This document shows, in pieces, positions 1,516 to 54,411 of a DNA stretch of 64,000 nucleotides. The notes under the pieces were generated by a model. The model was not told the origin of the DNA. It searched no databases and was given only the letters and a program-made list of their open reading frames with translations. The position numbers and the translations under genes are program-made. Positions within the stretch are counted from its first letter, which is position 1. Each line of letters starts with the position of its first letter. The DNA is from Candidatus Omnitrophota bacterium. Its GTDB lineage: Bacteria; Omnitrophota; Gorgyraeia; Zapsychrales; Zapsychraceae. The stretch spans positions 64,553 to 128,552 of the forward strand of contig JAHFGL010000002.1 of assembly GCA_023247445.1 (NCBI GenBank). The letters run 5' to 3'.

Positions 1516-1806
1516 ACCCGGATTTTGCAATAGCAAAATCCGCATTGACTTTCCTTAAATTTTTCATTGTAGTCAATACTGCACTGGTTATTTCTGGTAG
1601 AAAAAGTCAATGCAGTACTGATTACAAAAGTTAACGTTAAGGAAAACCAGTGCCGCCCAAAGGGCCGACAAAGTTGATATCGTCGGAGATATCGACAACT
1701 TTGGCGGGGTAATTCCATAATTTTGAACGCACATTTTTGTACATAAATTATGTGTGCGTGCAAAATTTGGGATAAAATACATTTTCTTTTAAAAAGGTTA
1801 TTCGTT

Positions 1807-3624
1807 ATGAGACAACGACAGCAAAAATTTTTGATTTTTATTTTAATGATGACAGCGATGCTTGTTTCGCCCATTCGTATAGCTTTCGCTCAAGTAAATG
1901 ATGCTCTATCATTGGATGGGATTAGTATTAGCCCAGAAGATATGCAAAAAGTTTGGGGATCACTAGATGCCGTTAGCGATCCCAATATTCGTGAAATGCT
2001 TCGATTAAAGTTAGAAGGAAAAACAGTTGCTGATATTGCTGCGCAGATGGGAGTCAGTGAGGAGGAAGTTGGCCGTTCGCTTATGACAGGAGCAATGATT
2101 CTTAAAAATGTAATCAATGTACAAGGTGGGGCCCAACCAACAGAAGAATTAACTTCTGAGACAATATCAGATAATTATTCAGCAGGTCCAGAAGGGAATG
2201 CCAAAGTTGTCGCTCATGGAAATACTAAGTCACGGCTTTTGGATGTCCTTGATTTAAAGAATATGGATATTCTCGATGTTCTTAAATTGATCTCACAGAA
2301 AACAGGGCTCAACATTGTGGCTAGTCAAAATGTTAAAGGCCGAATTACGGTTTATCTGAAAAATATCGACGTTTTAGAAGCTTTAAAGATTATTGTTAAT
2401 TCTTATGCGTGGGCTTATGGGAAAGAAGGCGAAACTGTCATGGTTATGACGGATAAAGAATTTCAGGACAAATATGGTTATAAATTTGGAGAAGATTTTG
2501 AGACACGGATAAAAAAGTTGATTTATGCCAGCGCCACCGATGCCTTGGCAATTTTAAATCAGGTAAAATCTAATTCCGGTAAGATCATTGCTGAGGAGAA
2601 ATCAAACACACTTATTTTAATGGACACGGTTGTGAAGCTTGATGAAATGGAAAATATTTTGAAACAAATTGATGTGGCCACTCAAACCCAGGTTTTTAAT
2701 TTAAGTTATGCGAAAGCAGAAGATATTTCGACGAAGATTACGGAAATTCTAACGCCCAATATTGGGAAGATGAAATTTGATGAGCGTTCTAATCGCGTCG
2801 TTGTCTCGGATACACCGCGTAAAATAGAAGAGATTAAGAAGTTTGTTGATGCCTTTGATCAACAACATAAAGAAGTTCTTATTGAGGCAAAAATTATTCA
2901 GATCACACTCGATGATACGCATAAAATGGGCGTTAATTGGGAAACTGTAGTTGCTAATTATCATAATTTGGATTTAACTTCTAATTTTGATATTCTAAGT
3001 ACAACAGATAAAAGAGGCAAGATAACGGTTGGAACAATTGCTGACGACAGATATATCGCTACCATTGAAGCGCTCGATACGGTTGGAACCACCGATATTC
3101 TCTCTAGCCCACGTATTACTACCGTCAATAATAAAGAGGCGAAGATTTTGGTTGGTTCAACAGAGCCTTATGTGACGACAACAACAACGACGCCAGCAAC
3201 TGGGCCAACAACAACAGCAGAGAGTGTTAATTTTATTGAAGTGGGTGTAAAATTATTTGTTACTCCAACAATTCATAATGATGATTACATTACGATGAAG
3301 ATTAGACCTGAAGTAAGTTCGGTTGTTAGAAGTTTAACGACGAGTAATAATAACAGCATTCCTATTGTTGAAACGTCCCAAGCGGAAACAACCGTGATGG
3401 TTAAAGATGGGGCGACTATTGTTATCGGTGGGTTGATGAAAGAATCAAAAACTAAATCGGTTAAGAAAGTTCCCCTGTTGGGTGATATTCCTTGGCTGGG
3501 AGGAGCATTTAAGAGTACCAATGATTCGGTGCAGAAGACCGAAATAGTTATCTTTTTATCTCCTCGGATTGTCACCGGAGACATCCAAGGAAATACTCCA
3601 GTAACCACTTCGTTAGCCAAATAG
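1807..3624 (+). CDS. secretin (GspD/MshL/PilQ family) with N-terminal sigma-70 region-4-like segment
   Basis: signal peptide MRQRQQKFLIFILMMTAMLVSPIRIAFA; N0-like domain; C-terminal secretin signature VKDGATIVIGGLMKESKTKSVKKVPLLGDIPWLGGAFKS..EIVIFLSPRIV; ORF track starts at 1750 but ATG at 1807 precedes the signal peptide. Confidence 0.8.
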   Translation: MRQRQQKFLIFILMMTAMLVSPIRIAFAQVNDALSLDGISISPEDMQKVWGSLDAVSDPNIREMLRLKLEGKTVADIAAQMGVSEEEVGRSLMTGAMILKNVINVQGGAQPTEELTSETISDNYSAGPEGNAKVVAHGNTKSRLLDVLDLKNMDILDVLKLISQKTGLNIVASQNVKGRITVYLKNIDVLEALKIIVNSYAWAYGKEGETVMVMTDKEFQDKYGYKFGEDFETRIKKLIYASATDALAILNQVKSNSGKIIAEEKSNTLILMDTVVKLDEMENILKQIDVATQTQVFNLSYAKAEDISTKITEILTPNIGKMKFDERSNRVVVSDTPRKIEEIKKFVDAFDQQHKEVLIEAKIIQITLDDTHKMGVNWETVVANYHNLDLTSNFDILSTTDKRGKITVGTIADDRYIATIEALDTVGTTDILSSPRITTVNNKEAKILVGSTEPYVTTTTTTPATGPTTTAESVNFIEVGVKLFVTPTIHNDDYITMKIRPEVSSVVRSLTTSNNNSIPIVETSQAETTVMVKDGATIVIGGLMKESKTKSVKKVPLLGDIPWLGGAFKSTNDSVQKTEIVIFLSPRIVTGDIQGNTPVTTSLAK

Positions 3625-3628
3625 ATTT

Positions 3629-4915
3629 ATGAAATTTTATACGGATCTGCATCTTCATTCGCATTACTCGCGTGCCACCAGTAAAGATTCAGACCTAGAG
3701 CACTTGTGGCTTTGGGCACAGCTCAAAGGTATTGATGTGCTTGGAACGGGAGATTTTGTCCATCCCGGTTGGTTGGATGAATTAAAGAAGAAATTGGAAC
3801 CCGCCGAAGAAGGGTTGTTTAAATTAAAATCGCAATTCGTCAAGACAATAGAAGGTGAGGTTCCCAAAGCTTGCCAGGGACAAGTTCGTTTTTTACTTTC
3901 TGTTGAGATATCAAATATTTATAAACGATTAGATAAGGTTAGAAAAGTTCATAATCTTATTTTTACGCCAAGCTTTGATGCGGCGGATAAACTTCAGAAA
4001 AGATTAGAGGCCATTGGCAATATCCGTTCAGATGGCCGTCCAATTTTGGGACTCGATTCGCGCAATCTTCTGGAAATTGTTTTAGAAACAGATCCTTCGG
4101 CGTATCTTATCCCGGCACACATTTGGACACCGTGGTTCTCGGCTCTGGGGTCTAAAGGCGGATTCGATCGAATGGAAGATTGTTTTGCTGATTTAACGAA
4201 ACACATTTTTGCCGTTGAAACAGGGCTTTCATCAGATCCACTGATGAATTGGCGACTCTCTCAACTTGATCCCTATGTGCTTGTTTCAAATTCTGATGCA
4301 CATTCGCCCGGAAAATTAGCACGAGAAGCAACGATGTTTGATACAGATCTTTCTTATCAAGGAATCTATCGCGCGTTGTCGGATAAGAAAGACAAGGGAC
4401 TTGTGGGAACGATTGAATTTTTTCCAGAAGAAGGAAAATATCATTATGATGGCCATCGCGATTGTAAGACACGTCTTCATCCCCAGGAGACCATTAAGAA
4501 TAAGGGACTGTGTCCAGTGTGTAAAAAATCCGTCACGGTGGGGGTCATGGCGCGTGTTGAAGAACTAGCGGATCATCCAGAAGGACGAAAATCTCCTCGG
4601 GCAAGACCGTATTTTAATTTAGTTCCTTTGCCTGAGATCGTTGCTGAATCAAAAGGAGTTGGAGCGGCTTCCAAAGTAGTTAATGAAATTTATGGACAGA
4701 TGTTAGCCAAATTAGGTAATGAACTTTATATCTTGCGCGAGGCCCCACTTAAAGATATAGAGGGTGTGGCTGGTGATTTAGTTGCGCAAGGCATTGATCA
4801 TGTCCGTCAAGGAAAAGTGAATATTGCCGCCGGATATGATGGGGAGTATGGGAAGGTTCATCTTTTTTCTGATGAGGATAGGACAGCAAAAGAAGGACAG
4901 CTGACACTATTTTAA
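3629..4915 (+). CDS. PHP-domain protein, TIGR00375/EndoQ-like putative nuclease with Cys-rich zinc finger
   Basis: N-terminal PHP motif DLHLHSHYSRATS..GTGDFVHP; later H/C cluster HYDGHRDC..CPVCKK; starts 4 nt after secretin stop. Confidence 0.65.
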   Translation: MKFYTDLHLHSHYSRATSKDSDLEHLWLWAQLKGIDVLGTGDFVHPGWLDELKKKLEPAEEGLFKLKSQFVKTIEGEVPKACQGQVRFLLSVEISNIYKRLDKVRKVHNLIFTPSFDAADKLQKRLEAIGNIRSDGRPILGLDSRNLLEIVLETDPSAYLIPAHIWTPWFSALGSKGGFDRMEDCFADLTKHIFAVETGLSSDPLMNWRLSQLDPYVLVSNSDAHSPGKLAREATMFDTDLSYQGIYRALSDKKDKGLVGTIEFFPEEGKYHYDGHRDCKTRLHPQETIKNKGLCPVCKKSVTVGVMARVEELADHPEGRKSPRARPYFNLVPLPEIVAESKGVGAASKVVNEIYGQMLAKLGNELYILREAPLKDIEGVAGDLVAQGIDHVRQGKVNIAAGYDGEYGKVHLFSDEDRTAKEGQLTLF

Positions 4916-5043
4916 AACCCTAAATCCTAAACTCAAAACTCTAAATAAATTTCAAACATAAAATTAAAAAGTTAAAACCGTTTTAAGTTTTGTATTTTAA
5001 GTTTAAATTTTATTTAGAGTTTTGGATTTAGAGTTTAGAATTT
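4916..5043. repeat. 128-nt intergenic palindromic element built from YCCTAAA heptads (arms ~35 nt) around a ttaaaaccgttttaa core
   Basis: left arm aaccctaaatcctaaactcaaaactctaaataaat is near-reverse-complement of right arm atttagagttttggatttagagtttagaattt. Confidence 0.7.
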
Positions 5044-5052
5044 ATATCAAAA

Positions 5053-6564
5053 ATGATTAATAAAATTCCAAAAGATGTTAATGAATCTCAATGGCAAGCG
5101 ATTTGTCACGATGGCAGTCACTTGCTCATTGTTGCGGGTCCAGGAACGGGCAAAACGCATACCTTGACTTACCGAATTGCTCGTCTAGCCGAGCAGCTTA
5201 ATGTTGGGCAGCGCATTTTATCGATTACGTTTACGAATAAGGCCACTGAGGAAATGCAAAAGCGTTTAGAAAAGAAATTTCCTGGTATCGAAAGTCGTGT
5301 TTGTGTCACCACATTCCATGGATTTTGTTTACAGTTATTAAGGGATCATGCTGATTTGAATCATTTGCCAAAAGATTTTAAGGTGGCAACGCCGGAAGAG
5401 ATTGATCTGTTAATTAAAGAATTGTGGATGGATAAGAGTGCCGGTGAGCGTAAAAATATCCTTAATGATATTTCTCGATATAAAGCCTTGGTGACAAAAG
5501 ATAGCGGCGTTTGTTTGGATCAATATAATTCTTTTTTAAGAGCGCGCGGATTTATAGATTTTGATGATTTATTGACGCAGGCCCTGAATCTTCTTCAGCA
5601 TAATGAAGAGACTCTAAAACAAACTCAGTTGAGCTATCCTTTTATTTTTGTCGATGAGTATCAAGATATTAATCCGATACAGCATGAGTTGTTAAAGATT
5701 TTAGTTACAGATAATGTTCATATAACGGCTATTGGTGATCCAAATCAGGCCATTTATGGCTTTCGTGGATCGGATGTTCGCTTCTTTGAAAGTTTTGTCA
5801 AAGATTTTCCTCAAGCACAGAAATATTTTCTTTCTGAGAATTATCGTTCAACGGCAAATTTGCTCGAGGCTTCAACACAGGTAATCAGTAAAAATAATTT
5901 TGGTGTTCCTGCTTTAACCGCGCATCTTTATGATCAAGGTCAGCTAACAATTTATGAGGCTTCGACGGATAAGGCTGAAGCGGAATATGTTGTTCATCAA
6001 ATTGAGAAAATGGTTGGCGGCACGAGCATGTTTTCACAAGATTCTAATCGCGTGACCAATGATCAAAAAGCTGATTATAGTTTTGGCGATATCGTTATCC
6101 TTTATCGATTAAACGCGCTACGAAATATTTTGGAAAAAGCATTTTTACGTAGCGGCATTCCTTTTCAGGTCTCTGGCAACAAGCCACACGCGTGTGATGA
6201 TCCTTTTGTTCGCCAAGCCGAGAAGGTAAATTTGATGACTATCCATGCTGCGAAAGGGCTTGAGTTCCCCGTTGTTTTTATGATTGGTTGCGAAGAACAT
6301 CTTTTACCACTTTGTCTTCCCGGATTAGAATCGGATCATGAAGAAGAACGACGGTTGTTTTATGTTGGGATGACGCGGGCCAAAGAAAAATTATATTTTA
6401 CGCGAGCGCAGCGGCGAGCTCTATTTGGCAAGATTTCGCATCCTGCTCCATCAATATATTTAGAAGATATTAAAGAAGAATTAAAGCAATATGAAAAACA
6501 AGAACATCATTCTAAATTTAATTCTGCTAAGAATGAGGCAATTCAATTAACGCTTTTTAAATAA
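5053..6564 (+). CDS. compact UvrD/Rep-family DNA helicase (503 aa)
   Basis: Walker A AGPGTGKTHT, motifs DEYQDINP, GDPNQAIYGFRG, NYRST, TIHAAKGLEFPVVF, YVGMTRAKEKL. Confidence 0.8.
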   Translation: MINKIPKDVNESQWQAICHDGSHLLIVAGPGTGKTHTLTYRIARLAEQLNVGQRILSITFTNKATEEMQKRLEKKFPGIESRVCVTTFHGFCLQLLRDHADLNHLPKDFKVATPEEIDLLIKELWMDKSAGERKNILNDISRYKALVTKDSGVCLDQYNSFLRARGFIDFDDLLTQALNLLQHNEETLKQTQLSYPFIFVDEYQDINPIQHELLKILVTDNVHITAIGDPNQAIYGFRGSDVRFFESFVKDFPQAQKYFLSENYRSTANLLEASTQVISKNNFGVPALTAHLYDQGQLTIYEASTDKAEAEYVVHQIEKMVGGTSMFSQDSNRVTNDQKADYSFGDIVILYRLNALRNILEKAFLRSGIPFQVSGNKPHACDDPFVRQAEKVNLMTIHAAKGLEFPVVFMIGCEEHLLPLCLPGLESDHEEERRLFYVGMTRAKEKLYFTRAQRRALFGKISHPAPSIYLEDIKEELKQYEKQEHHSKFNSAKNEAIQLTLFK

Positions 6565-13910: not shown

Positions 13911-16900
13911 ATGCAAAGACTATATATTATAGAGAAGAGTACCAAGCGTCTTTGGACCCGTTTTATATCTGCTTTTGTCGTTTTTGCCTTTAGCATCAAT
14001 GTTATTATTCCGCCAAGTTACGCGCAATCAACTCCCACACTTTTAAATTTACCTGCGCCGGGAACTATGGTCATGACGACCCCAATCTATCATCCTGCTT
14101 TGGTCAAAGGGCTCATGATTTATCCAGACAATCCGCTTAAATTTGATTTTATTATTGATAAAGGCGACACCAAGCTTTCCGATGAAGATTTCAAAAAAGA
14201 ATCGACCAAGTTAATTAAATATTTCTTGGCGTCGTTGACGACCCCAGAAAAAGAGATGTGGGTGAATCTTTCTCCGTATGAAAAAGACCGCATTATTCCG
14301 CAAGGCTTTGGCCAGACGGAAATGGGCCGCGACATGTTGGCGCAAGATTATTTGCTTAAACAATTATCTGCATCGTTAATGTATCCCGAAGGTGATTTGG
14401 GAAAATCGTTTTGGGATCGGGTGTATAAGAAAGCGAAAGAGAAATTTAATACAACCGATATCCCGATGAATACTTTTAACAAGATTTGGATCGTTCCGGA
14501 AAAGGCACTGGTGTATGAACATGAAAAGGGCGCGTTTGTGGTTAAATCGCATTTAAAGGTTATGCTTGAGGAGGATTATCTGGCGCTTGAGGCCAATAAA
14601 AATTCCACGAAGCACGGCTTGGGTGATGTGAAGAGAGAAGATCTGAAAGTTATTAGCGGCGTGCAGTCGCAAGTTGTTAGAGAAGTTCTGATCCCTGAGA
14701 TTGAGAAGGAAGTTAATGAAGGCAAAACTTTCGCGAACTTAAGACAGATTTTTAATTCGGTTATCTTGGCGAGCTGGTACAAACAGGCCTTAAAAGAAAG
14801 TTTGCTTGGCAAATTTTACGTGGATAAAAGTAAAAACAAGGGTATTGAGGTTGAGGATAAGCAGATTAATCAAAAGATTTATGATCAATATGTCGCGGCT
14901 TTTAAAAAGGGTGTGTACGACTATATTAAAGAAGATTACGATCCGAATACACAGCAGATCATTCCTCGAAAATATTTTTCGGGTGGAGTTGTTGCCGCTG
15001 TAGGGGTTGATACAACTGATGCTAATGATAAGGCAACATCAGAAGCTGTTGCTGATGCTGTTGCGGATCTTGCTGACCCAACCCAAGGCGCTACAGTAAC
15101 AACAACATTGGGTTCCGTTGGCAGTCAGATCACAGAAGGTCAAGATGCTATTACGACATTTTTTGCGAAACCTCGAAGTCGTCGAGATTTTGGCCGAGGA
15201 TCTTTGTTGGCTGCTGCTGTGGCTGCTTTTGGTAGTGGAGTTCTTAGTCGTCGCGCTTCTGCTACAGAAACACAGCAAGTAACTGTTAAAAGTGATATTG
15301 TGCAATGGGTTAATTTTGAGAAAGAAGGAATTGCCGTTGATCCTGTTGTTAGTCAATTAATGGATCGTGCCAAGATTCAAGGTCAAACCGTTGCCATTGT
15401 CCGTAGTTTACCGGCATGGAAACGGTTAATGAATGATTGGAAGGCAGATGCGGGATTTCCAGCACCTCCTTTTGGTGTGAGAACTCAAATCCCCGGAGGA
15501 AGACTCGCCCTTGTTCTTGCCTATGCGCCTATGATGGGCAATGGAGAATATGATTTGTTAGCGCATGAATTATTTCATGAGATTATTGCTTCAAGACAAG
15601 AACCTCAAAGAGGTATTGTTTTTTCTCAAGCACCACTTATTATTAATGATTTTGTAGGAATTATTGAGCAACTACCTCAAAAAGATGCTGTAGCCTTTGA
15701 ACAATTATTGAAATGGATCTATGAAGAATATTTTACGGAATCGGAACGAAGTAAGGGAGGATCGTATTCAATTAAATACTCAATTAAAGGTAACGGTGGA
15801 AGACAAGCTGTAAGTTCTGTTGGCGCCTTTGCCGTCGATGAGCTAATGACTTTCATTTGGCATTGGGGTCAATATGGAAATTTGCCAGGATTACAGGAGA
15901 GATTTGATAAATTAACGCCTGATGAAAAGGCATACTTTAAAAATGTTAGTGGAACGGATCAAAGGATCCGAAGCTTTCTTAATCAAAGCGACCAGAAAAC
16001 AAGAGAAGTTTTTAGAAGATATTTTGAAGATACGCTGCATGTTCCTGTTCCCCGTTTGTTTCAGATAGAGCAAGATCCCGCGATGCTGACGGGGCGAAGT
16101 TTATTGCTAGGAATCGCCTTGAGTGGGTTATTAACTGTGTTTGGAGGTGGATGTTCATCTATGAAAAATAGTCCGCTTACGGCGGCACAACAAGTACAAG
16201 GAATCGTTGACAGTGGAAAAGAAATAAAGATTATATCTCGAGAAGATGCCAAAAAAGAATTTGGAGAATTTTATAATAGAGCTCTAGATGTAGGGAAAAA
16301 AATTACAGACGAAAAGTATGGTCAGGTAATAAACGATGCCAATGATTTAATTGCAACAATAGATGCGAAATTAGCTCAAGGGGGATATACAACAGCAAAA
16401 GGATCAGTAGATGATTTTGAAGGGATCAAAACAGCTCTTAAATATTATAAACTCACAGCGGCGACGGCTATTTTAAAAGCAAATTTAGGTGAACTAAATG
16501 AGTTGGCCAGTAAGGCTTTAGCAGGAGAATTTTTTGCCAAGGCAGGAGATGATCTAGCTAAGGAAGGGAATGGTCCAGCTAGTAAGGAAAAATATGGCGA
16601 GGCTCGTGAAAGTTGGAAAGAAGTCCAAGGAAGAATTGGTGGTCTAATTAACCGTTTAAGTGTAATTGAAGGTGAAAATGTCATTGTCGCTCCTGGTAAA
16701 GGTAGTGCCGCTCCAACCACAGGGCCAGCAGATACTTTTGTTAACCAAGCTAGAGATGCCCAGGAAAGAGCAAGAAAAGGTTTAGAGAAAATTGGCGACG
16801 ACGAAGCGATGTTCAGTGAAAAGGTTGGGTTGGAACTACTTCCTGAGATAGCCGCACATATGAGCGACCCCAATTGGCGTCTGATTGTTGGCCCTGAAGG

Positions 16901-19900
16901 GTTGCTTAAGGTTACAGAAGTTGATCTTGAAAAACAAACAATAACCGTCGTTAGAGAAGGTAACTTGGGGTATTTTTATGTTTCGCGTGGTGGGGATAAT
17001 AGCACGGTCAAGGCACAAAGAGGTCGGCCAACGACAGTCACAGTTAATCAATATTCAAACTTTGCGTTATGGGGCAGTAGGGCCGGATATGAGATGACTA
17101 GAAACAATGCCTTTAGGGCATTTAAAAATCATCGTTGGGTTCCTCATTTGTTTGGGCTAGATGCTATTTATAAACGTTTAGTTGATTCTCCCAAAGCCGA
17201 TTCTATTCTAGAAAAAGTTTTCATCGAAGTTTTCCCAGGACCAGAGCCTATAGGGCAGAAATTAAAAACATTATATGATTCAATATCTTCCAAAACTGTT
17301 TTTCGCACGGAATACAACGATAAAATAAAAGAGATTATTTTGCAGTATTATAGGCAAACAGGAGAGGATCTTATTCGTGCAGGTGTTTTAGAGTCTTTTC
17401 TTAGAGAAGATGCTGATCAAAAAGTTTGGCCGATATTTCATCGAGATGGTGGGACCAATGCAGCGGCCTGGCCATCTATAGGTAATGTCCCTTCGGATGT
17501 TGACTTTTATTTTCGTGAACAAATGTTTAACCAAGGTGTAAACCTTTTGAATAAAGATGAACAAGCAGATCCCATTATTGGATTAAATACTTATTATCCA
17601 ACTTATCGTAATGAGCATAGATCGGATGAATTTAGTCAGAGAATTATTAGGGCTCAAACAGACTTTGAAGAAGGAAGAAGGTTGGCTCAAGAAAATGCGA
17701 GTCGTTTAAAAGATGCCTTAGTGGGACAAGGAATCGATATTAAGGATATTGATTTAATTGTTCCTGTTCCTTCGTTTAAACCCGAAACCAGTCAAGTTGT
17801 TCCCATGACTGATGAATTGTCAAAAGCTCTTAATATTCCAACGAATCCAGCGGCTTTTAAGAAAATCCGTTCAACAGAAAATCAATCAACAATAAGAAAC
17901 CTTTTTGAACGGATTATTAATGTGGTTGGTGCTTTTGAGGCTGATTCACAAGCACTGGCGAATAAGACTGTTCTTATTTTTGATGACAATGTGACGACAA
18001 AAGCTACTTTGTTGGAATTAGCCCGTGTCACCATGGAAGCAGGAGCCAAACGGGTTATTTTAGTGGCTTTGGGAAAAACAATTGAAAAAGATCGTATAGC
18101 TCAAGACGACGCCGCGATGCTGACGGTTGATGAGAAATTTATAACGCAGTTTAACGTTGTTCGTCGTCAGTATTTAAGGGCGATAAGACAGGGAGAGCCA
18201 ACGCATGAGATCCACGATTTAGCTGGGATGGTTATTGAATATATAAAAGGAATTGAAATCCTTTTGGAAGATAAGGCGGCCAAAGGAAATCTCGAGGCCA
18301 AAGTCGCCCTTGATGATTTTCGAGAGATTTTTAATCCCATCGATGATTTGAGATCTCCTGGAGGGAAAGACCGTATCAAAACTAACGAGCCTGAAAGAGA
18401 AGCGGCGGATCGTGAATTTATTATTGAATTTCAATCAAATATAAGATTAAAACAAGTACTGAGAAACATTGAATCTAAACTTTTGGGTGAAGATATTGCG
18501 CGAGCGGCGGGGCTCGATCAAAAAGGGCAAGTCATGTTGGAGAGATATGTGGAAATATTGGCGGCACTCAATAATAAGAGTCTTACTGAAAGCATCGACC
18601 GTTTTGAGCGCGAGACAGATCAAGATGTCCTTGGTCTATTTAATAGAACCCAACCCATTTTGTTCGCTATTTTGCAAGATCCTTTGGAGAAACAGGCCAA
18701 AACGATTACTTCATTAGATGAATTCCTTCGGTTAAGTGATGAAATTCGATATCAATTAAATATGAACGCTTCGCGTGATTTCTTGAGCGCCGCTGAGATC
18801 GCAGATGTAGAGGCGGATAAAAAAGATTTAGGATGGTTACGACAAAGACGTTTTGGACTCTCGCAGACTCAAGGAAAGCTGCGATCTAAAGCTGGCGATT
18901 CAGGGAGAGTTACGGATAATATTGAAATTATTGATGCATCGATCGTTCGTCTTGGTGGAAATTTGGATGACTTTGCGATGTTGACCAATGCAGTTGCGAT
19001 CGCTCAAGAAGCCCTGGATCGACTTAAGAAGGAAACATCAAAAGGGCTTAAGCCACCTTTAGTTATTTTAAGTATTGGTGATGAGGAGACAATCGCAGAT
19101 TACGAGCTTTCATTTAGTAACTTTAGAGATAGAGTTAAAGACGTTGAGAATCTTCTCTCTCGTTTATTGCTAGAGATTGAAAAAGCACCTGTTACATTAG
19201 TGGGCAACATTCAACTTTTAAGCGATGTGGATTTAGATTTTTCTATCATGGAAGAATCTTTAGAAAAAATACGAGATTTAACCGAAACACTCCGTGGAGG
19301 CGAGGGAAGGTTTAATCCTGTCATGGTTGAGCATGTGGCTAATTCAATAAGTGGAGAAATACTATTCGGGCGAGATCAAGTCAACTCATCGCCAGCGCAG
19401 TTATTAAGGGCACTGCGTGAGCTGATAAAATGTTTAGAAATAAAAATAGTGCAAAAATATGAAGCTTTACCAGCATCTGAAAAAATGGTGTTCCCAAAAG
19501 AAGCTATTAGAGAACAACTAGCTCAAACCCGTATAACTTTCTTTATTGACGATTTTATGGAGAAACTAAATATTCCGATTAGACAAAAAGCAGAGCTTGT
19601 AAGATTCTTTCGTGAATTAGGGCTAAACGAGGTCGAAGAGGAGACGTTGCCGGGAACGGGTCTTTGGGAGAATTTGTACAGTAATGCATTGTTTAAGCCA
19701 AAGTTGATGCCGATAGTTTTACACAAAAAATATCCATATTACCACGACTTCGTCGCTGATCCTGGTTATACTGTAAGCGTGCGGGACGCTCGTGGACTTG
19801 AGATTATATCGATGAAAAGAAATGGCACAGGTCAAGTAACAATAAACAATGGAGAGCAATTAACGGCTCGAGCTCGGCCCTTTAGAAGTCCTGCCAGTGA

Positions 19901-20324
19901 TTCAATGTCGGAAGGCGCTGGATATAATTTTGACGCGATGGTCGTTAATGATCAACTAATCATTATCAATATGGGCGATACGCCAATTACCATTAAACTT
20001 GATGAAGCACTGGTGACAAAAAAGGCGGAGTATGGTGGTATCGACATGAATCCGATGATTCTAGAGCGTGAGGTTCAAAAGAATGGTCACGGCGTGATTA
20101 TTCCGATGCCGACCGGCCCGATGCCGGATATGCGTAATATCGAAGGTTTTGTGCCAAGTATTATTAACATCGCGCCAGTTACCAACTTGCCGCTTCTATT
20201 AGGAATTGTAACGCCTAATCAAGCTCCGGTCTCATCTGGTTCTGATACAAATTCCCCCGCAGGTGACTTAGGGTTTTATGACAAGTCAAAATTTTCAAGA
20301 GAAATCGAATTGACTAACATCTAA
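13911..20324 (+). CDS. giant (2137 aa) multidomain protein: signal peptide, possible HExxH motif, internal TM helix, ComF-type phosphoribosyltransferase domain
   Basis: uninterrupted ORF; N-terminal signal FISAFVVFAFSINVIIPPSYAQ; LLAHELFHEI at nt ~15564; hydrophobic segment SLLLGIALSGLLTVFGGG at nt 16082-16150; PRTase motif VPVPSFKP...GAF....NKTVLIFDDNVTTKATLLELARVTMEAGAKRVILVALGKT at nt ~17745-18080. Confidence 0.75.
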   Translation: MQRLYIIEKSTKRLWTRFISAFVVFAFSINVIIPPSYAQSTPTLLNLPAPGTMVMTTPIYHPALVKGLMIYPDNPLKFDFIIDKGDTKLSDEDFKKESTKLIKYFLASLTTPEKEMWVNLSPYEKDRIIPQGFGQTEMGRDMLAQDYLLKQLSASLMYPEGDLGKSFWDRVYKKAKEKFNTTDIPMNTFNKIWIVPEKALVYEHEKGAFVVKSHLKVMLEEDYLALEANKNSTKHGLGDVKREDLKVISGVQSQVVREVLIPEIEKEVNEGKTFANLRQIFNSVILASWYKQALKESLLGKFYVDKSKNKGIEVEDKQINQKIYDQYVAAFKKGVYDYIKEDYDPNTQQIIPRKYFSGGVVAAVGVDTTDANDKATSEAVADAVADLADPTQGATVTTTLGSVGSQITEGQDAITTFFAKPRSRRDFGRGSLLAAAVAAFGSGVLSRRASATETQQVTVKSDIVQWVNFEKEGIAVDPVVSQLMDRAKIQGQTVAIVRSLPAWKRLMNDWKADAGFPAPPFGVRTQIPGGRLALVLAYAPMMGNGEYDLLAHELFHEIIASRQEPQRGIVFSQAPLIINDFVGIIEQLPQKDAVAFEQLLKWIYEEYFTESERSKGGSYSIKYSIKGNGGRQAVSSVGAFAVDELMTFIWHWGQYGNLPGLQERFDKLTPDEKAYFKNVSGTDQRIRSFLNQSDQKTREVFRRYFEDTLHVPVPRLFQIEQDPAMLTGRSLLLGIALSGLLTVFGGGCSSMKNSPLTAAQQVQGIVDSGKEIKIISREDAKKEFGEFYNRALDVGKKITDEKYGQVINDANDLIATIDAKLAQGGYTTAKGSVDDFEGIKTALKYYKLTAATAILKANLGELNELASKALAGEFFAKAGDDLAKEGNGPASKEKYGEARESWKEVQGRIGGLINRLSVIEGENVIVAPGKGSAAPTTGPADTFVNQARDAQERARKGLEKIGDDEAMFSEKVGLELLPEIAAHMSDPNWRLIVGPEGLLKVTEVDLEKQTITVVREGNLGYFYVSRGGDNSTVKAQRGRPTTVTVNQYSNFALWGSRAGYEMTRNNAFRAFKNHRWVPHLFGLDAIYKRLVDSPKADSILEKVFIEVFPGPEPIGQKLKTLYDSISSKTVFRTEYNDKIKEIILQYYRQTGEDLIRAGVLESFLREDADQKVWPIFHRDGGTNAAAWPSIGNVPSDVDFYFREQMFNQGVNLLNKDEQADPIIGLNTYYPTYRNEHRSDEFSQRIIRAQTDFEEGRRLAQENASRLKDALVGQGIDIKDIDLIVPVPSFKPETSQVVPMTDELSKALNIPTNPAAFKKIRSTENQSTIRNLFERIINVVGAFEADSQALANKTVLIFDDNVTTKATLLELARVTMEAGAKRVILVALGKTIEKDRIAQDDAAMLTVDEKFITQFNVVRRQYLRAIRQGEPTHEIHDLAGMVIEYIKGIEILLEDKAAKGNLEAKVALDDFREIFNPIDDLRSPGGKDRIKTNEPEREAADREFIIEFQSNIRLKQVLRNIESKLLGEDIARAAGLDQKGQVMLERYVEILAALNNKSLTESIDRFERETDQDVLGLFNRTQPILFAILQDPLEKQAKTITSLDEFLRLSDEIRYQLNMNASRDFLSAAEIADVEADKKDLGWLRQRRFGLSQTQGKLRSKAGDSGRVTDNIEIIDASIVRLGGNLDDFAMLTNAVAIAQEALDRLKKETSKGLKPPLVILSIGDEETIADYELSFSNFRDRVKDVENLLSRLLLEIEKAPVTLVGNIQLLSDVDLDFSIMEESLEKIRDLTETLRGGEGRFNPVMVEHVANSISGEILFGRDQVNSSPAQLLRALRELIKCLEIKIVQKYEALPASEKMVFPKEAIREQLAQTRITFFIDDFMEKLNIPIRQKAELVRFFRELGLNEVEEETLPGTGLWENLYSNALFKPKLMPIVLHKKYPYYHDFVADPGYTVSVRDARGLEIISMKRNGTGQVTINNGEQLTARARPFRSPASDSMSEGAGYNFDAMVVNDQLIIINMGDTPITIKLDEALVTKKAEYGGIDMNPMILEREVQKNGHGVIIPMPTGPMPDMRNIEGFVPSIINIAPVTNLPLLLGIVTPNQAPVSSGSDTNSPAGDLGFYDKSKFSREIELTNI

Positions 20325-20356
20325 ATTAAATTGTTTAAGGCGAAGTACCTGTAAAG

Positions 20357-21379
20357 TTGACAATTGCCCATTTATCGGGTATATATTTTGCGTTAATCAC
20401 AAAAGGCATCTCAAAAATGAAACCATTGTATCGAAATTTATTATGGGTCGGGATTCTTATCGGAGGCGTTGTTGTTTCTAAGTACGCCCACGAGCTAATT
20501 CTAATGGCCATTTATTTTACTAAGGAATACTTCTATTGGCCGCTTTTAGCGACGTTTAAGAAAACGATCTTTACGCCGCAATTTTATCTCTTCCTGGGAG
20601 CGATTTTACTTATCGAACGATTGTTTCCCGCCAATAAGAATCAAAAGATTCTTAGCACGAGCTTTTTTCAAGATATCATCTGGTTTTTTGTTGAAAGCAT
20701 AGGCCAGGCCTTTATTATCTCAACGTATGTTGCATTCTTGTTTAATTTTTATCATCAACATTTAAGCTTTTTGACGATTCAAAGTACCGCGCAAATTCCA
20801 GAGTGGGGAAGACTTATTATTGGAATTGTTCTATTGGATTTTCTTTATTGGCTGCAACATTTTATTAATCACAAAGTTCAATGGCTTTGGTTTTTTCATT
20901 CAATCCATCATTCACAAAAGGAAGTTAATGTTTTCACGGATTTTAGGTATCACACCTTGGAATATGTTATGAGAAATACAATTATTAGTATTCCATTTTA
21001 TATTTTGGGCATTAAATTACCTACGCTCATCTATTTTATTGTTTTTCAGATGTGGTTTACCCGATTCTATCATGGCAACATCAAGACTAATTTAGGATGG
21101 TTACGATATATTCTTGTTACGCCGCAATCGCATCGTGTTCATCATTCCATTGAGCGCCGCCATCAGGATAAGAATTTTGGTTCTATATTAAGTATCTGGG
21201 ATTTTATATTTGGTACTCAATATCGCGGGTATGATGAGTATCCAGTGACGGGTATTGAAGACGAACATTTTCCGCATGAAACCTCAAAGAATATTGTTAA
21301 TTTAATCCGCACACCGCTTCTGCAGCTCATTTATCCTTTCCGCCGAATTGCCAAGCAAGTTTTTAAATCAAAAGAATAA
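20357..21379 (+). CDS. fatty acid hydroxylase/sterol desaturase superfamily membrane protein
   Basis: histidine boxes HFINHK, HSIHHS, HRVHHS; multiple TM helices; true start may be ATG at 20417. Confidence 0.75.
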   Translation: MTIAHLSGIYFALITKGISKMKPLYRNLLWVGILIGGVVVSKYAHELILMAIYFTKEYFYWPLLATFKKTIFTPQFYLFLGAILLIERLFPANKNQKILSTSFFQDIIWFFVESIGQAFIISTYVAFLFNFYHQHLSFLTIQSTAQIPEWGRLIIGIVLLDFLYWLQHFINHKVQWLWFFHSIHHSQKEVNVFTDFRYHTLEYVMRNTIISIPFYILGIKLPTLIYFIVFQMWFTRFYHGNIKTNLGWLRYILVTPQSHRVHHSIERRHQDKNFGSILSIWDFIFGTQYRGYDEYPVTGIEDEHFPHETSKNIVNLIRTPLLQLIYPFRRIAKQVFKSKE

Positions 21380-21418
21380 GTAGTTTTAAGAATGTAGTTT
21401 AGTCCATTTTTTTCAATT

Positions 21419-21490
21419 GCGTCATTCTGAGCGAAGCGAAGAATCCCAGTCGATCGAGATTCTTCGGCCCTTTGGGCCTCAGAATGACGG
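21419..21490. repeat. palindromic structured repeat, copy 1 (cgtcattctgag...ctcagaatgacg)
   Basis: terminal inverted repeats cgtcattctgagcg/cgctcagaatgacg with internal hairpins gaagaatc/gattcttc and ggccctttgggcc. Confidence 0.8.
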
Positions 21491-21630
21491 AATACGATGA
21501 ACGACATTAGTCTTGCCGAACTTCTCTGGAGAATCGTTGAAGGCTCTTAAGCGAATAATAATATGCTTAAACTCCGTTCCTTATCTTAGATATTGCAAAT
21601 TTTGCATGGCGAAGGATATAATGTCCTCCT

Positions 21631-24600
21631 ATGAAGAGCTCCCCATCGAATGCGTTTTCATTCCCTGAAGTCAGAGTTGTTGAAGCCAGCGCCGGTTCCG
21701 GCAAAACTTTTGCCCTCGCCAAACGTTATATCCAACTTCTTCTTCACCCGTCTTTAACGGTTGACTCCATTCCGATGCGCTCGATTTTGGCAATTACCTT
21801 TACCAACAAAGCTGCCTTCGAGATGAAATCGCGTATTTTGGAATTCTTAAAGTGTATAGCGCTCAAGAAATTATCCGCCGCGCAAGACAATGAGATTCTA
21901 AAGCCGCTAGGGATTAGCCAAGAAGAGGCGAGTGGCAAGGCCTTTCAAATCATGGAGGTCTTGATCCATCATTACAATTTCTTTCAGGTTCAAACTATCG
22001 ACAAATTTATTAACGCGCTTCTTTCCGGATGTGCTTTTAAAATTGGATTAACCGCCAACTTTAAAATTAAAACGAATTCTTACGAATATCTCGAATACAG
22101 CTTGGATCAATTGATCGATCAGGCGGCCCACCACAAAGAATTATCTAAGATATTTCAATATTTTCTTCACAACTATTTGTATCTTGAAAATCGGACGGGC
22201 TGGTTCCCGAAAGAGGATATGCTTTCGATTATGCTGGCCCTTTTTCGTCATCACAATACTTATGGGCTGGATTTTAAGAAAAGTTCGTTGACTCCGGAAG
22301 ATTTGATTAAGAAAAAGAAATCAATCTTGGCGGAGATGAAGACACTACGTTCTATCTTGCCAGAATCGACAGATTTACGTTTTGTTAAGAGTTTTGATAA
22401 GTTCTTGGCGAACACATCAGGCACTTTCGATGTCGATAGTTTGTCAGATTATTTCTTACGCGAGGCGATTCCTATCAAGAAAGGAACAGAAGTTTCTGAT
22501 GAGGCTGACAAACTTTGGGTCAAGATACGAAGTGGAATCCAACAAGTTTGTGAAGAAGAGGCCTATTCACTTTTTAATCCGTATGTTCAGTTGTATTCGT
22601 ATGTCGCCACAAATTTTTATCAGCTTTCGGCCAAAGATGATGTGCTATTTTTGGAGGAATTAAATAAAAGGGCGAGCCGACTTTTTGATAATGAGTATGT
22701 AACGGTTGAAGAACTTTATTTTCGTCTGGCAACGCGTTTTCGTCATTACTTAATTGATGAGTTTCAAGACACCAGCCGCCTGCAGTGGCTTAACATTGAG
22801 AAAATGGCCGAAGAGGCGTTGGCCACCGGCGGATCACTCTTTTATGTGGGCGATCGTAAGCAGGCGATTTATGGATTCCGCGGTGGAGAAGTCACGCTTT
22901 TTGATCAACTTAAAACACAATTTGATGCCTTTAATATTAAAGTCGATTATCTGACCAACAATTGGCGCAGCCAGCGTGCGATTGTCGAATTTAATAATTC
23001 TATTTTCTCCCTCGATAATTTGAAACGATTTATTCGCGAAAAGGAAACCTATGAAGAAGAGAAAAATAAGCGCGGGATGATTGCCTTTAGTGATGACGAT
23101 TTTAACGCGCTGGCCGATATCTTTAAAGGCGCGCAGCAAACGTTTCAGCCGAAGTACAAAGATGGTTACGTCAAAATCGAATATATTGGCTTGGACAAAA
23201 AGGAAGATCGCGATGAAGAAATTCGCACGAAGGTCGTCAGCCTTGTGAAAGATTTACGCAATCGATTTTCTTATCGCGACATCGCAATCTTGACTCGCAG
23301 CAACCAGCAAATTGAGGATTTAACTAACTGGCTCTTGGCCGAAGGAATCTTGGTCGAGTCGGAACGTACCTCTAGCGTCAAAGAGAATCATCTGATTAAA
23401 GAATTGATTTCTTTCCTGAAGTTTTTAGATTCTCCTATCGACAATCTTTCGTTTGCCTCATTTATCCTGGGTGATATTTTCAAGAAGGCCTCGGGATTGT
23501 CAGAATCTGAATTACACACCTTTGTCTTTAAATCACGTGAGCACTTGGCCAATAACAAAGATGCTTATTTATACATGGCGTTTCGGCAGGCGTATCCAGA
23601 AGTTTGGGAGCGTTTGATTAATGAGTTTTTCAAAAATGTCGGACTGTATCCATTGTATGAACTGGTCATTAGCATTTATCATCGATTGAATTGTTTGATT
23701 AATTTTTCCGAGGCGCAAGGATTCTTGATGCACTTTCTTGAACTCATCAAAGAAGAGGAAGAAGATCACGGCGACATCACGTCATTTCTTGATTATTTTG
23801 AGCAGTTGGAGGGCGCCGATTTATTTGTTGCGGTGACCGATACGGATGCGGTCAAAATATTGACAGTTCACAAGGCGAAGGGTTTGGAATTTCCCATCGT
23901 TATAATTCCGTTTCTAGGAATGGACGTTCAGGTTGGGTCGCAGGGCGCGGATCAGCAGCAATCGTATATTGTTAAACGGGATAGTGCCGCCATTGAGCTC
24001 ATTCGTCTTAAGACTAAATATTTAAGCTTTTCAGAGGAGCTGTATCAAATTTATGCGGATGAATATAAGAAGGCGCTGCTTACGGAATTAAATAATGTTT
24101 ATGTCGCGTTAACCCGCGCGCAGTATGAGCTGTATGCTTTTATTCCCAAAAGAATTCAAAACAGTTTTAATCTGGTCAAGTTTCTTATCCCTGAAGATAA
24201 TTTTGAAGCGGGTGTGCAGCACACCTATGATATCAAGCTGTCAGCTGCTGATTCGATCAAGCAATTGCCGCCTTCGCAATATCATGATTGGATTGATTAT
24301 TTGAAGGATGAGTTTTTAGATTTAAACGAACTTAAGAATAGAGAAGAAAGGCGCCGGGGGGAAATTTTACATTTTATGTTATCGTTTGTGGGAAATCTGA
24401 AAGAGGCGAATAAGAAGGAAATCATCCATCGCGCCGCCCAAGAAGCAAAAACACATTTTGCTCAAACAGCTGACTTAACCGCGCATGTTAACTTATTAAA
24501 CCAGTTGTTGGATGAGCCTGCGCTCAAACAATTCTTTTATGTTGATGCGGATGTTAAGACCGAACAGGATGTGGTCAATGCTGTTGGACATCCCAAGCGA

Positions 24601-24789
24601 ATTGATCGGCTTATTATTAAAAAAGATGAAATTATCGTCGTTGATTACAAAAGTTCAGCCCATCCGCAAGATGTGTATCGGGATCAGGTCAAAGATTATT
24701 GTTTAATTGTCCGCGAGATGTATCCGAAGCATCGCGTGAAGGGATATTTGATTTATTTAGATAGTTTTAAGGTTGAAGAAGTTCTCTGA
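21631..24789 (+). CDS. AddA/RecB-like helicase-nuclease (UvrD helicase domain plus C-terminal PD-(D/E)XK nuclease)
   Basis: Walker A ASAGSGKTFAL, FTNKAAFEM, DEFQDTS, GDRKQAIYGFRGG, TVHKAKGLEFPIV, C-terminal IIVVDYKSS nuclease motif. Confidence 0.8.
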   Translation: MKSSPSNAFSFPEVRVVEASAGSGKTFALAKRYIQLLLHPSLTVDSIPMRSILAITFTNKAAFEMKSRILEFLKCIALKKLSAAQDNEILKPLGISQEEASGKAFQIMEVLIHHYNFFQVQTIDKFINALLSGCAFKIGLTANFKIKTNSYEYLEYSLDQLIDQAAHHKELSKIFQYFLHNYLYLENRTGWFPKEDMLSIMLALFRHHNTYGLDFKKSSLTPEDLIKKKKSILAEMKTLRSILPESTDLRFVKSFDKFLANTSGTFDVDSLSDYFLREAIPIKKGTEVSDEADKLWVKIRSGIQQVCEEEAYSLFNPYVQLYSYVATNFYQLSAKDDVLFLEELNKRASRLFDNEYVTVEELYFRLATRFRHYLIDEFQDTSRLQWLNIEKMAEEALATGGSLFYVGDRKQAIYGFRGGEVTLFDQLKTQFDAFNIKVDYLTNNWRSQRAIVEFNNSIFSLDNLKRFIREKETYEEEKNKRGMIAFSDDDFNALADIFKGAQQTFQPKYKDGYVKIEYIGLDKKEDRDEEIRTKVVSLVKDLRNRFSYRDIAILTRSNQQIEDLTNWLLAEGILVESERTSSVKENHLIKELISFLKFLDSPIDNLSFASFILGDIFKKASGLSESELHTFVFKSREHLANNKDAYLYMAFRQAYPEVWERLINEFFKNVGLYPLYELVISIYHRLNCLINFSEAQGFLMHFLELIKEEEEDHGDITSFLDYFEQLEGADLFVAVTDTDAVKILTVHKAKGLEFPIVIIPFLGMDVQVGSQGADQQQSYIVKRDSAAIELIRLKTKYLSFSEELYQIYADEYKKALLTELNNVYVALTRAQYELYAFIPKRIQNSFNLVKFLIPEDNFEAGVQHTYDIKLSAADSIKQLPPSQYHDWIDYLKDEFLDLNELKNREERRRGEILHFMLSFVGNLKEANKKEIIHRAAQEAKTHFAQTADLTAHVNLLNQLLDEPALKQFFYVDADVKTEQDVVNAVGHPKRIDRLIIKKDEIIVVDYKSSAHPQDVYRDQVKDYCLIVREMYPKHRVKGYLIYLDSFKVEEVL

Positions 24790-24871: not shown

Positions 24872-25180
24872 TTGAGGATATTTGTATATATGGATAAGCA
24901 ATCATATGTTTATATTTTATCTAACAAAAGCAACTCGGTTTTATACACCGGCGTTACGAGTGATCTAATAAAGAGAATTTATGAGCATAAGCATAAGTTG
25001 GCTGATGGATTCACAAAGAAATATAACGTAGATAAATTAGTATATTTTGAAGTTTTTGACGATATTGAACAGGCTATATTGCGGGAGAATCAAATTAAGG
25101 GATGGGTAAGAGTTAAGAAATTGGCCTTAATTGAATCGAAGAATTCGAATTGGAAAGATTTATATGGAAATATTTTATGA
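24872..25180 (+). CDS. small GIY-YIG nuclease family protein (UPF0213-like, 102 aa)
   Basis: YVYILSNKSNSVLYTGVTSDLIKRIYEHK (GIY-YIG core) ... ILRENQIKGW; flanked on both sides by repeat-element halves. Confidence 0.75.
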   Translation: MRIFVYMDKQSYVYILSNKSNSVLYTGVTSDLIKRIYEHKHKLADGFTKKYNVDKLVYFEVFDDIEQAILRENQIKGWVRVKKLALIESKNSNWKDLYGNIL

Positions 25181-25212
25181 GATCCTTCGTCCCTTCGGGA
25201 CTCAGGATGACG
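25181..25212. repeat. half-copy of the palindromic repeat (right arm)
   Basis: gatccttcgtcccttcgggactcaggatgacg matches right arm of the cgtcatcctgag family. Confidence 0.7.
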
Positions 25213-32845: not shown

Positions 32846-32900
32846 GTTATGGGGAATAGGGTATAGGTGCTAGTTGAAGTTATTTTAACTAAAATCTTTT

Positions 32901-32932
32901 AAACCCTAAACCCTAAATCCTAAACCCTAAAA
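32901..32932. repeat. four tandem telomere-like heptads (CCCTAAA CCCTAAA TCCTAAA CCCTAAA) immediately upstream of ileS start
   Basis: aaaccctaaaccctaaatcctaaaccctaaaa directly abuts ATG 32933; no Shine-Dalgarno. Confidence 0.8.
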
Positions 32933-53495: not shown

Positions 53496-53782
53496 GGGAT
53501 AGGGGCAGTTTGACACCCCTCTGCCAGCATGTTATACTTTCGACGCAGATATGAAAGGGTAAACCTTCCGTAAGGATGGGACACAAAACTATAGGGCCCT
53601 ACAATAGAGGGCAGCCAGTTGCCAAGATGAGCGATTTTTGTGAACCTATTCCCAAAGAAGGAATAGGTTTTTTTATCAGTGTAGGAAAGTATATAGGAAT
53701 TTAGAAACTGCTAGAAAATTCCTTTCCTACACAGCAAAGAAGATATGACGAACGAAGTGAGGAATTTTCTTGTGAAAAGTCT

Positions 53783-54012: not shown

Positions 54013-54411
54013 ATGAAACGAACAAATCAAAGTGGTTTTACGTTAGTAGAAATTATGATCGTTGTTGCGATCATTGCGCTATTAGCGGCGATTGCAATTC
54101 CAAACTTACTTCGCGCTAAGATTTCAGCCAATGATGCCAACGCGCAGGCAACTTTGCGAAGTATGTCTACTGCTTCCGAAACTTTTGGAACAGCAAACAA
54201 TGGGAGTTATCCAGCAGCGGTCACCTCAATGGTTACAGGGTCTACACCACCCTATCTTAATAGTAACTATTGCGGGGTAACGATGGATGGGTATGCGTTT
54301 TCATGTACTAATACGACAGGTGCATATACTTATATCGCAACACCGACTACGGTAGGAACAACAGGGACGACAACCTACACAATGACAACAGGCGGAATTT
54401 TAACTCCGTAA
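54013..54411 (+). CDS. pilA: type IV major pilin (class III signal peptide)
   Basis: N-terminus MKRTNQSGFTLVEIMIVVAIIALLAAIAIPNLL; strong SD aaaaggagag; Thr/Gly-rich C-terminus. Confidence 0.85.
   Translation: MKRTNQSGFTLVEIMIVVAIIALLAAIAIPNLLRAKISANDANAQATLRSMSTASETFGTANNGSYPAAVTSMVTGSTPPYLNSNYCGVTMDGYAFSCTNTTGAYTYIATPTTVGTTGTTTYTMTTGGILTP

Follow-up and report, generated by a model that had tools for sequence, protein, structure and literature searches.

A pair of adjacent genes is described here from a 64,000-nucleotide (nt) stretch of contig JAHFGL010000002.1 of a Candidatus Omnitrophota bacterium (positions 64,553 to 128,552). The whole of this stretch is called the window. The first gene (3629..4915, plus strand) codes for a 428-residue endonuclease resembling endonuclease Q (EndoQ), with a PHP catalytic domain, a Zn-binding domain and a C-terminal helical domain. 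The second (5053..6564, plus strand) codes for a 503-residue helicase of the UvrD/PcrA type, a superfamily 1A (SF1A) protein with the Pfam domains UvrD-helicase and UvrD_C. The two are separated by a spacer of 137 nt. Upstream lies a secretin gene of the GspD/PilQ type (1750..3624, plus strand; Pfam Secretin, E=6e-51), which is genomic context and stands outside the module. Between its TAG stop codon at 3622-3624 and the ATG of the nuclease gene at 3629 there are 4 nt. An earlier reading of this DNA from its letters alone, here called the sequence-only reading, had given the same open reading frames (ORFs) and the same 4-nt junction, and these match the ORF calls exactly. On comparison with its relatives, the pair is a derived, split variant of a widespread fusion protein, and its helicase lacks the 2B domain.

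An endonuclease of the EndoQ family

In a profile search, residues 6-410 of the nuclease align to positions 3-374 of the 374-position TIGR00375 model, with a score of 178.2 bits. A phmmer comparison with 5zb8 and 7k30, crystal structures of EndoQ from P. furiosus (PfuEndoQ), pairs nuclease residues 5-412 with PfuEndoQ 5-382 (E=5e-50). The homology to characterised EndoQ covers the PHP, Zn-binding and C-terminal helical domains at full length. A scan of the nuclease against the Pfam library gives no match; the precomputed annotation of its homologues is PF27218 (MJ0043_C). Since its TIGR00375 score lies below the curated cut-off of 326.6, the protein is a divergent bacterial member of the EndoQ family and not an equivalog.

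The metal-binding residues are conserved. The HxH motif H8, H10 (3650..3658, plus strand) corresponds to H8/H10 of PfuEndoQ. Likewise, E93, H108, H164, D223 and H225 align with PfuEndoQ E76, H84, H139, D193 and H195, which together with H8 and H10 serve as metal ligands in that enzyme (PMC5961232). All of these ligands are invariant in an alignment of 14 members of the clade. The damaged-base pocket of PfuEndoQ is formed by H139, T142, E167, L168, G169, L170, S171 and N191 (PMC5961232, PMC8307549). Its counterparts here are H164, T167, E197, T198, G199, L200, S201 and N221, which are invariant or nearly so in the clade. The single change from PfuEndoQ is that of L168 to Thr (T198) in the bacterial clade.

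The Zn-binding site H276-x2-C279 ... C295-x2-C298 (4454..4522, plus strand) has the translation HRDCKTRLHPQETIKNKGLCPVC. Its four named residues are invariant in the same alignment, and metal binding is predicted. PfuEndoQ has a C4 site consisting of C249/C252/C268/C271 (PMC5961232). The first ligand is thus His in the bacterial clade, as against Cys (C249) in the archaeal site. The sequence-only reading had proposed an EndoQ-like PHP nuclease with a His/Cys finger, which is borne out by the end-to-end matches to TIGR00375 and PfuEndoQ and by HRDC...CPVC at 4454-4522.

Close homologues of the nuclease, 70-79% identical to it, are found across Candidatus Omnitrophota metagenome-assembled genomes. 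The NCBI name for them is "endonuclease Q family protein", and some sources mislabel them as "DNA helicase UvrD/PcrA". At the locus of a near relative (L005) the nuclease is 77% identical, the highest conservation among 12 syntenic proteins. Two other identities, histidinol phosphatase and PolX accessory domain, were considered for the protein. Both are rejected on the full-length EndoQ match and the conserved metal and pocket residues.

A UvrD-type helicase without the 2B domain

The helicase matches the Pfam domains UvrD-helicase (E=3e-64) and UvrD_C (E=7e-38). Its match to PcrA (1pjr, E=3.5e-73) consists of two aligned stretches, PcrA 11-383 and 555-647. The residues between them, PcrA 384-554, are the 2B domain of about 170 residues, and they have no counterpart in the window helicase. 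In their place the PcrA alignment gap leaves a 12-residue linker, KPHACDDPFVRQ (residues 377-388; 6181..6216, plus strand). The C-terminal Tudor-like domain of PcrA is also absent. Of the four subdomains of the SF1A architecture, the protein has 1A, 1B and 2A only.

The predicted structure agrees with this alignment. The AlphaFold model has a predicted local distance difference test score (pLDDT) of 85 and a predicted template modelling score (pTM) of 0.82, and the 2B site is a low-confidence loop (379-387, pLDDT <50). The top Foldseek matches are UvrD, PcrA and Rep, with template modelling scores near 0.80 when taken over the query and near 0.64 when taken over the target. The lower value is expected, since one quarter of the target is without an equivalent in the helicase.

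The motor itself is complete. Motifs Q, I, Ia, II, III, IV, V and VI are all kept as invariant columns in a 65-sequence helicase alignment. They include Walker A, or motif I, with the sequence GPGTGKT (residues 29-35; 5137..5157, plus strand), DEYQD at 201-205, motif III GDP.Q.IY.FRG at 228-239 and motif IV N263-S266. Motif V has H398...K401, G402, E404 and F405, and motif VI has Y437, V438...T441 and R442. A minimal UvrD helicase of 503 residues, with complete core motifs and no 2B, had been described in the sequence-only reading; the PcrA alignment and the model confirm that description.

The helicase is 52% identical to its counterpart at L005, among the lowest values of the 12 syntenic proteins. 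NCBIfam equivalog cut-offs are not reached for PcrA (357.6 vs 911.2), UvrD (304.7 vs 1,144) or Rep (297.9 vs 951). A plain PcrA/UvrD orthologue with full domains is rejected as an identity for the protein because these scores lie far below the cut-offs and 2B is absent.

Linkage of nuclease and helicase across bacteria

Relatives of the nuclease were sought exhaustively among 1.84 billion representatives of 50%-identity clusters. The search found 3,841 clusters, 1,080 of them at E<1e-30. Among the best 150 of these 3,841 relatives, 146 have a UvrD helicase in the same protein. These are long proteins: 131 of the 150 best representatives reach at least 900 residues, and most have 1,000-1,200. 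One such fusion, P0121, has a helicase half that shares 53% identity with the window helicase and is about 150 residues longer at the 2B site. Across the fusions, 59-190 residues (median 135) are present at this site in excess of the window helicase.

A second scan, with each GTDB species represented by one genome, gives matches in at least 600 of these genomes, and the best 80 loci were analysed. These 80 span more than 15 phyla. The lineages are KSB1, Omnitrophota, Planctomycetota, Latescibacterota, Fibrobacterota, Chloroflexota, Bacteroidota, Myxococcota, Actinomycetota, Gemmatimonadota, Desulfobacterota, Firmicutes, Nitrospirota, Peregrinibacteria, Binatia and Acidobacteriota.

Linkage was counted at loci with enough downstream sequence, which for species genomes means at least 1.5 kb. 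Among the species-genome loci the two genes are fused in 57, adjacent in 9 and unlinked in 6 (n=72). Loci on metagenome contigs include 27 fused and 11 adjacent pairs (n=52). When individual homologue look-ups are added to both sets, 84 fused and 24 adjacent loci give linkage in 108 of 128. In the linked loci the nuclease comes first and both parts lie on the same strand, without exception. In other Omnitrophota, the nuclease and helicase genes overlap or abut, and the flanks are entirely different.

Sequence comparison therefore strongly supports the view that the pair would work as one functional unit. The idea of a single module had been put forward in the sequence-only reading, and both the 146 fused relatives and the 108 fused or adjacent loci agree with it. 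The latter count is also the outcome of the check on neighbourhood conservation of the PHP-UvrD pair that had been suggested there.

The loss of 2B goes with the split form. Helicases essentially without 2B number 19, and 17 of these are split forms. Fifteen of those 17 belong to the clade in which identity to the window nuclease is 64% or more. In fused forms, the 2B site has 96-164 extra residues (interquartile range).

A different arrangement is seen in Thermodesulfovibrionales, Nitrospirota and Dissulfurispiraceae. Four loci (L053, L078, L083 and L041) hold EndoQ-like genes of the clade with no helicase within the downstream sequence at hand. This pattern is consistent with an entry of about 417 residues from Thermodesulfovibrio in a list of 2016 (PMC4858679). 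This one lineage appears to use the nuclease alone.

Clamp-binding-type motifs

Both proteins end in the same pentapeptide, QLTLF, which is of the beta-clamp-binding type. One copy forms the C-terminus of the nuclease (4898..4912, plus strand; translation QLTLF*). The other stands at the C-terminus of the helicase, followed by K and the stop codon (6544..6558, plus strand; translation QLTLFK*). Bacterial EndoQ homologues have the beta-clamp-binding consensus QL[D/S]LF, and archaeal EndoQ binds PCNA via a C-terminal PCNA-interacting protein (PIP) box and is stimulated by it (PMC4858679).

The motif is specific to these proteins in the window. A greedy non-overlapping call over the 64 kb gives 51 ORFs of at least 90 residues, and a C-terminal Q[LM]x[LF]F occurs in two of them, which are the nuclease and the helicase themselves. 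It is also found in 96 of 120 unfused nuclease homologues and in 93 of 120 helicase homologues. Among the fusions, 73 of 131 representatives have it, compared with 0 of 139 control ORFs, which immediately flank the 80 species loci. A relaxed clamp motif is present at the domain junction of 88 of the 131 fusions, exactly where the split nuclease ends. The two QLTLF tails would most likely serve to recruit both proteins to the beta clamp.

Motifs of this kind have been tabulated before. Supplementary Fig. S1 of Shiraishi et al. 2016 (PMC4858679) gives clamp motifs near positions 400-460 and 940-1,244. Since the positions extend to 940-1,244, long proteins had already been seen in 2016.

A proposed model for excision repair

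The proposed reading is that the pair is an EndoQ-UvrD fusion, widespread among bacteria, in split form, and that its two parts act together as a clamp-tethered nick-and-unwind excision repair module. The probability of this reading is put at about 0.65. The process would start with the beta clamp, which recruits the EndoQ-like protein. At a uracil, a hypoxanthine or an abasic site, this protein would flip out the base that has been deaminated or lost, and would then incise the phosphodiester bond directly on its 5' side. The break would have a 3'-OH on one end and, on the other, a 5'-phosphate with the lesion attached. The helicase, as a 3'-to-5' translocase, would use the nick to load onto the intact strand and would peel off the lesion-bearing 5' end. 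Finally, a clamp-bound polymerase would extend the 3'-OH, a 5' flap nuclease or exonuclease would remove the displaced strand, and ligase would seal the gap.

In Rep and UvrD the 2B domain is autoinhibitory. Because of this, its loss suggests control by the nuclease partner and the clamp: the helicase would be constitutively competent, and the control normally exerted by 2B would be handed over to them. A helicase step has already been drawn for EndoQ-initiated repair (PMC4357722 Fig. 10).

Several points weigh against this reading. The TIGR00375 score of the nuclease stays below the curated cut-off of 326.6, so its substrate specificity could differ. The helicase is not nearby in 20 of the 128 loci (about 16%) and is thus not obligatory. 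Clamp binding is predicted from a motif that is short and linear. The loading strand of the helicase, its direction of unwinding and a physical contact of the split halves are predictions of the model. To our knowledge, no helicase-linked EndoQ homologue has been biochemically characterised; the enzymes of B. pumilus and B. subtilis are stand-alone proteins of another family.

The low profile score would also suit a clamp-associated nuclease and helicase that kept the EndoQ fold and act on another substrate, such as embedded ribonucleotides, stalled forks, flaps, R-loops or other replication by-products. The His in place of Cys as first Zn ligand and the Thr at pocket position 168 would agree with such a shift, the dual clamp motifs point to the replisome, and a dedicated helicase partner is absent for archaeal EndoQ. 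However, all pocket and metal residues other than L168 are conserved or invariant in the clade, which would be unexpected if uracil, hypoxanthine and abasic (AP) sites were no longer read. A change of substrate is therefore unlikely.

Relation to known systems

The nearest characterised proteins are the archaeal EndoQ enzymes (PfuEndoQ PF1551 and TkoEndoQ; structures 5ZB8 and 7K30-7K33). They have the same three-domain layout from end to end as the window nuclease, identical metal ligands and, except for the L168 to Thr change, the same damaged-base pocket. Both also have a C-terminal sliding-clamp motif, which is a PIP box for PCNA in archaea and a predicted QLxLF motif for the beta clamp in the window. 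Incision 5' of deoxyuridine, deoxyinosine and AP sites, as by archaeal EndoQ, would be expected of the window nuclease. The two differ in sequence (about 30% identity), and only the window nuclease has a dedicated helicase partner.

The long bacterial EndoQ homologues (about 950-1,240 residues, PMC4858679) are closer. They share the nuclease clade with the window protein at 50-70% identity. Their helicase is up to 53% identical (P0121), and they have the same order of parts and the same terminal QLxLF. In contrast, the window form is split into two genes right after the internal QxxLF at the domain junction, its helicase is without the 59-190-residue 2B insertion, and a 129-nt inverted repeat lies between the halves. 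EndoQ proteins have been divided into three families "based on the domain organization", of which families 2 and 3 are bacterial (PMC5961232). The long homologues probably correspond to one of these two.

The window helicase has the motor motifs and the 1A-1B-2A fold of UvrD, PcrA and Rep. By analogy, it is presumed to translocate 3'-to-5' and to load at nicks, which they do in mismatch repair and rolling-circle replication. It differs from them by the absence of 2B and of the Tudor-like domain, and by its clamp-motif tail and dedicated nuclease partner. It resembles Rep-delta-2B, an engineered protein. Brendza et al. are said to have found in 2005 that Rep-delta-2B is a hyperactive monomer.

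The proposed order of events (nick, helicase unwinding, resynthesis, ligation) is the logic of MutH/MutL-UvrD mismatch repair and of UVDE-type alternative excision repair. Unlike in these pathways, the nicking enzyme here has a helicase of its own, linked to it covalently or genetically, and the predicted trigger is a deaminated or abasic base.

The question of defence

Gabija is also a two-gene system of a nuclease and a compact UvrD-like helicase, and the sequence-only reading had drawn this analogy. An anti-phage or foreign-DNA module of the same logic as GajA/GajB would nick invading DNA that is abnormal or contains uracil or hypoxanthine, and the helicase would unwind it for degradation. 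The helicase matches the PADLOC GajB profiles (E=5.5e-84), and a review gives a suggested antiviral role for Bacillus EndoQ, which is not inhibited by phage Ugi (PMC8307549).

These profiles, however, are generic UvrD profiles. Solved GajB matches helicase residues 177-270 only, with E=6e-17 against 3.5e-73 for PcrA, and GajB is not among the top 50 Foldseek matches. The window helicase stands nearer to PcrA/UvrD, with GajB more distant. For the nuclease, PADLOC gives no match at all, and its PHP fold is unrelated to the OLD/TOPRIM fold of GajA. A GajA partner (an OLD-family ATPase/TOPRIM nuclease) is rejected, since the partner here is a PHP/EndoQ protein.

The surroundings of the genes do not resemble defence islands either. 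Among the 139 flanking ORFs, 7 have PADLOC matches at 1e-10, each model once. The same ORFs contain 160 Pfam families, none of which occurs more than 3 times, so no conserved third gene is found; the flanking genes are varied housekeeping genes. Enrichment in defence islands had been proposed as a check, and no islands are found around the 80 species loci. A tblastn search of the nuclease against 50,697 phage records gives no copy. The same search against 72,556 plasmids gives one match, of the Bacillus type, on a 733-kb Brevibacillus replicon. The pair has clamp motifs, is not on mobile elements and has no defence-island context, all of which sets it apart from Gabija. Its high sequence conservation and the clamp motif fit a replisome-linked housekeeping role. 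PADLOC, the flank census and the phage and plasmid searches all fail to bear out the analogy with Gabija, and a defence function is improbable.

The inverted repeat in the spacer

The spacer between the two genes contains an inverted repeat of degenerate heptads of the AAACCCT/TTTAGAG type (4915..5043, 129 nt, unstranded). Its arms, 4915-4978 and 4980-5043, are 64 nt long each, lie 1 nt apart and are 81% complementary. Both consist of period-7 sub-repeats. The sequence-only reading had noted a palindromic heptad element between the genes, and it takes the form of this 64+64-nt repeat. Folded as RNA, the spacer forms a single long hairpin with an energy of -40.1 kcal/mol (z=-7.7), a stability reached by 0 of 200 shuffled versions. 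An Rfam scan of the spacer gives sub-threshold chance matches only and no family. A scan of the spacer for terminators and promoters gives nothing above shuffle expectation and no consensus terminator.

The heptad pattern is absent from all 86 loci of relatives that were searched. In L005 the nuclease-helicase junction is an overlap or small gap, and in L006 it is a spacer of 34 nt. Because the repeat is missing from the junctions of these nearest relatives, it is evidently a recent, lineage-specific insertion in the window genome, into a junction that is overlapping or fused elsewhere. At most, it would act as an intercistronic RNA hairpin.

The degenerate heptad pattern is found at two sites in the window, with 8 matches compared with 0.08 expected. 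The second site is a tandem (AAACCCT) array at 32900-32931 (4.6 copies, 92% match), which shares its heptad with the inverted repeat. The array starts about 55 nt after the preceding stop codon and ends 1 nt before the start of ileS (ORF from 32933). The AAACCCT unit is that of the plant-type telomere repeat.

The secretin gene and DNA transport

The sequence-only reading had considered the tight coupling of the nuclease gene to the secretin gene to be special. A secretin gene is directly upstream only in the two nearest relatives, L005 and L006 (77-79% nuclease identity); among 125 other loci, none has one there. The 51 ORFs of the window all lie on the plus strand, and 21 of the 50 junctions between them are 10 nt or shorter. 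An abutment of 4 nt is thus ordinary for such a compact genome, and the supposed special coupling is not supported. Co-transcription of secretin and nuclease is plausible, with no functional implication.

One might still ask whether the pair processes DNA that passes through the neighbouring secretin or through competence machinery. It does lie 4 nt downstream of a PilQ/GspD/HofQ-type secretin, and comEA-comEC follow the pair in another Omnitrophota-like clade. Yet an upstream secretin is limited to the two nearest relatives. Likewise, comEA or comEC occurs in 8 loci (both in 7), all within the 66-72% identity band. Secretin and competence families are absent from the 25 most frequent Pfam families of the flanks, where no family is found more than 3 times. 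The upstream operon of the window includes type II secretion system (T2SS) components, namely T2SS J, K and M, a GspC-like protein and an ExeA-like ATPase. Tight unidirectional packing is usual in this genome. A role in DNA transport is very improbable.

The loci with comEA and/or comEC are L002 (5545-12350), L003, L012, L013 and L091-L094, with 66-72% nuclease identity. In L002 and L003 these genes come directly after the pair, and in L002-L004 leuS comes before it, unlike the secretin context of the window. Within the window secretin, residues 81-110 (1990-2082) have weak matches to sigma-70 region 4 and to the GerE helix-turn-helix (E=0.002-0.007, below cut-offs). Such matches are unusual for a secretin and may be due to chance.

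Other features of the window

The GC skew is above zero in every 2-kb bin of the window except 20001-22000 (-0.005). No tRNA genes were found in the 64 kb. An ORF of 2,137 residues at 13911-20324 has no Pfam match at E<=1e-4.

About 15 kb from the EndoQ pair, the window has another helicase-nuclease system, of a conventional kind. It consists of an AddA-like protein of 1,052 residues (21631-24789), with a UvrD helicase and a C-terminal PD-(D/E)XK nuclease, and an AddB-like PD-(D/E)XK protein of 955 residues (25150-28017).

A cyclic di-GMP-I riboswitch (RF01051) is found at 53548-53626 on the plus strand, with 60 bits compared with a gathering score of 35. It sits in an ORF-free stretch of 1.5 kb, upstream of an ORF of 132 residues (54013-54411) that has a prepilin-type N-terminal methylation motif.

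Implications

Reviews describe EndoQ as an archaeal enzyme that is found in few bacterial genera. The scans give a different picture from this narrow distribution, with matches in the genomes of at least 600 species and in 3,841 protein clusters, and a helicase is fused to the majority of the closest relatives. The widespread bacterial EndoQ-helicase enzyme is barely described and has never been functionally characterised. In the literature searched, no paper describing the helicase link of EndoQ was found; Shiraishi et al. 2017 lay outside that search. The sequence-only reading knew of no named system of this composition. This is fair as far as the name goes, although long bacterial EndoQ homologues with C-terminal clamp motifs had been tabulated in 2016 (PMC4858679). 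The split, 2B-less form of Omnitrophota and the helicase's own clamp tail appear to be undescribed.

A broader proposal, more doubtful than not, is that EndoQ with a dedicated UvrD-type helicase on the beta clamp may be a major overlooked bacterial pathway for deaminated and abasic bases, present in more than 15 phyla. The split form of Omnitrophota would then be a natural 2B-less ("Rep-delta-2B-like") helicase that is gated in trans by the nuclease.

For annotation, the pair should not carry PcrA, UvrD or Rep labels, nor should it be read as defence genes. For EndoQ-initiated repair, the linkage would name the missing downstream step, which is the removal of the strand by a dedicated helicase. 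For UvrD-family helicases, the split form without 2B would be a natural experiment on the purpose of this autoinhibitory domain.

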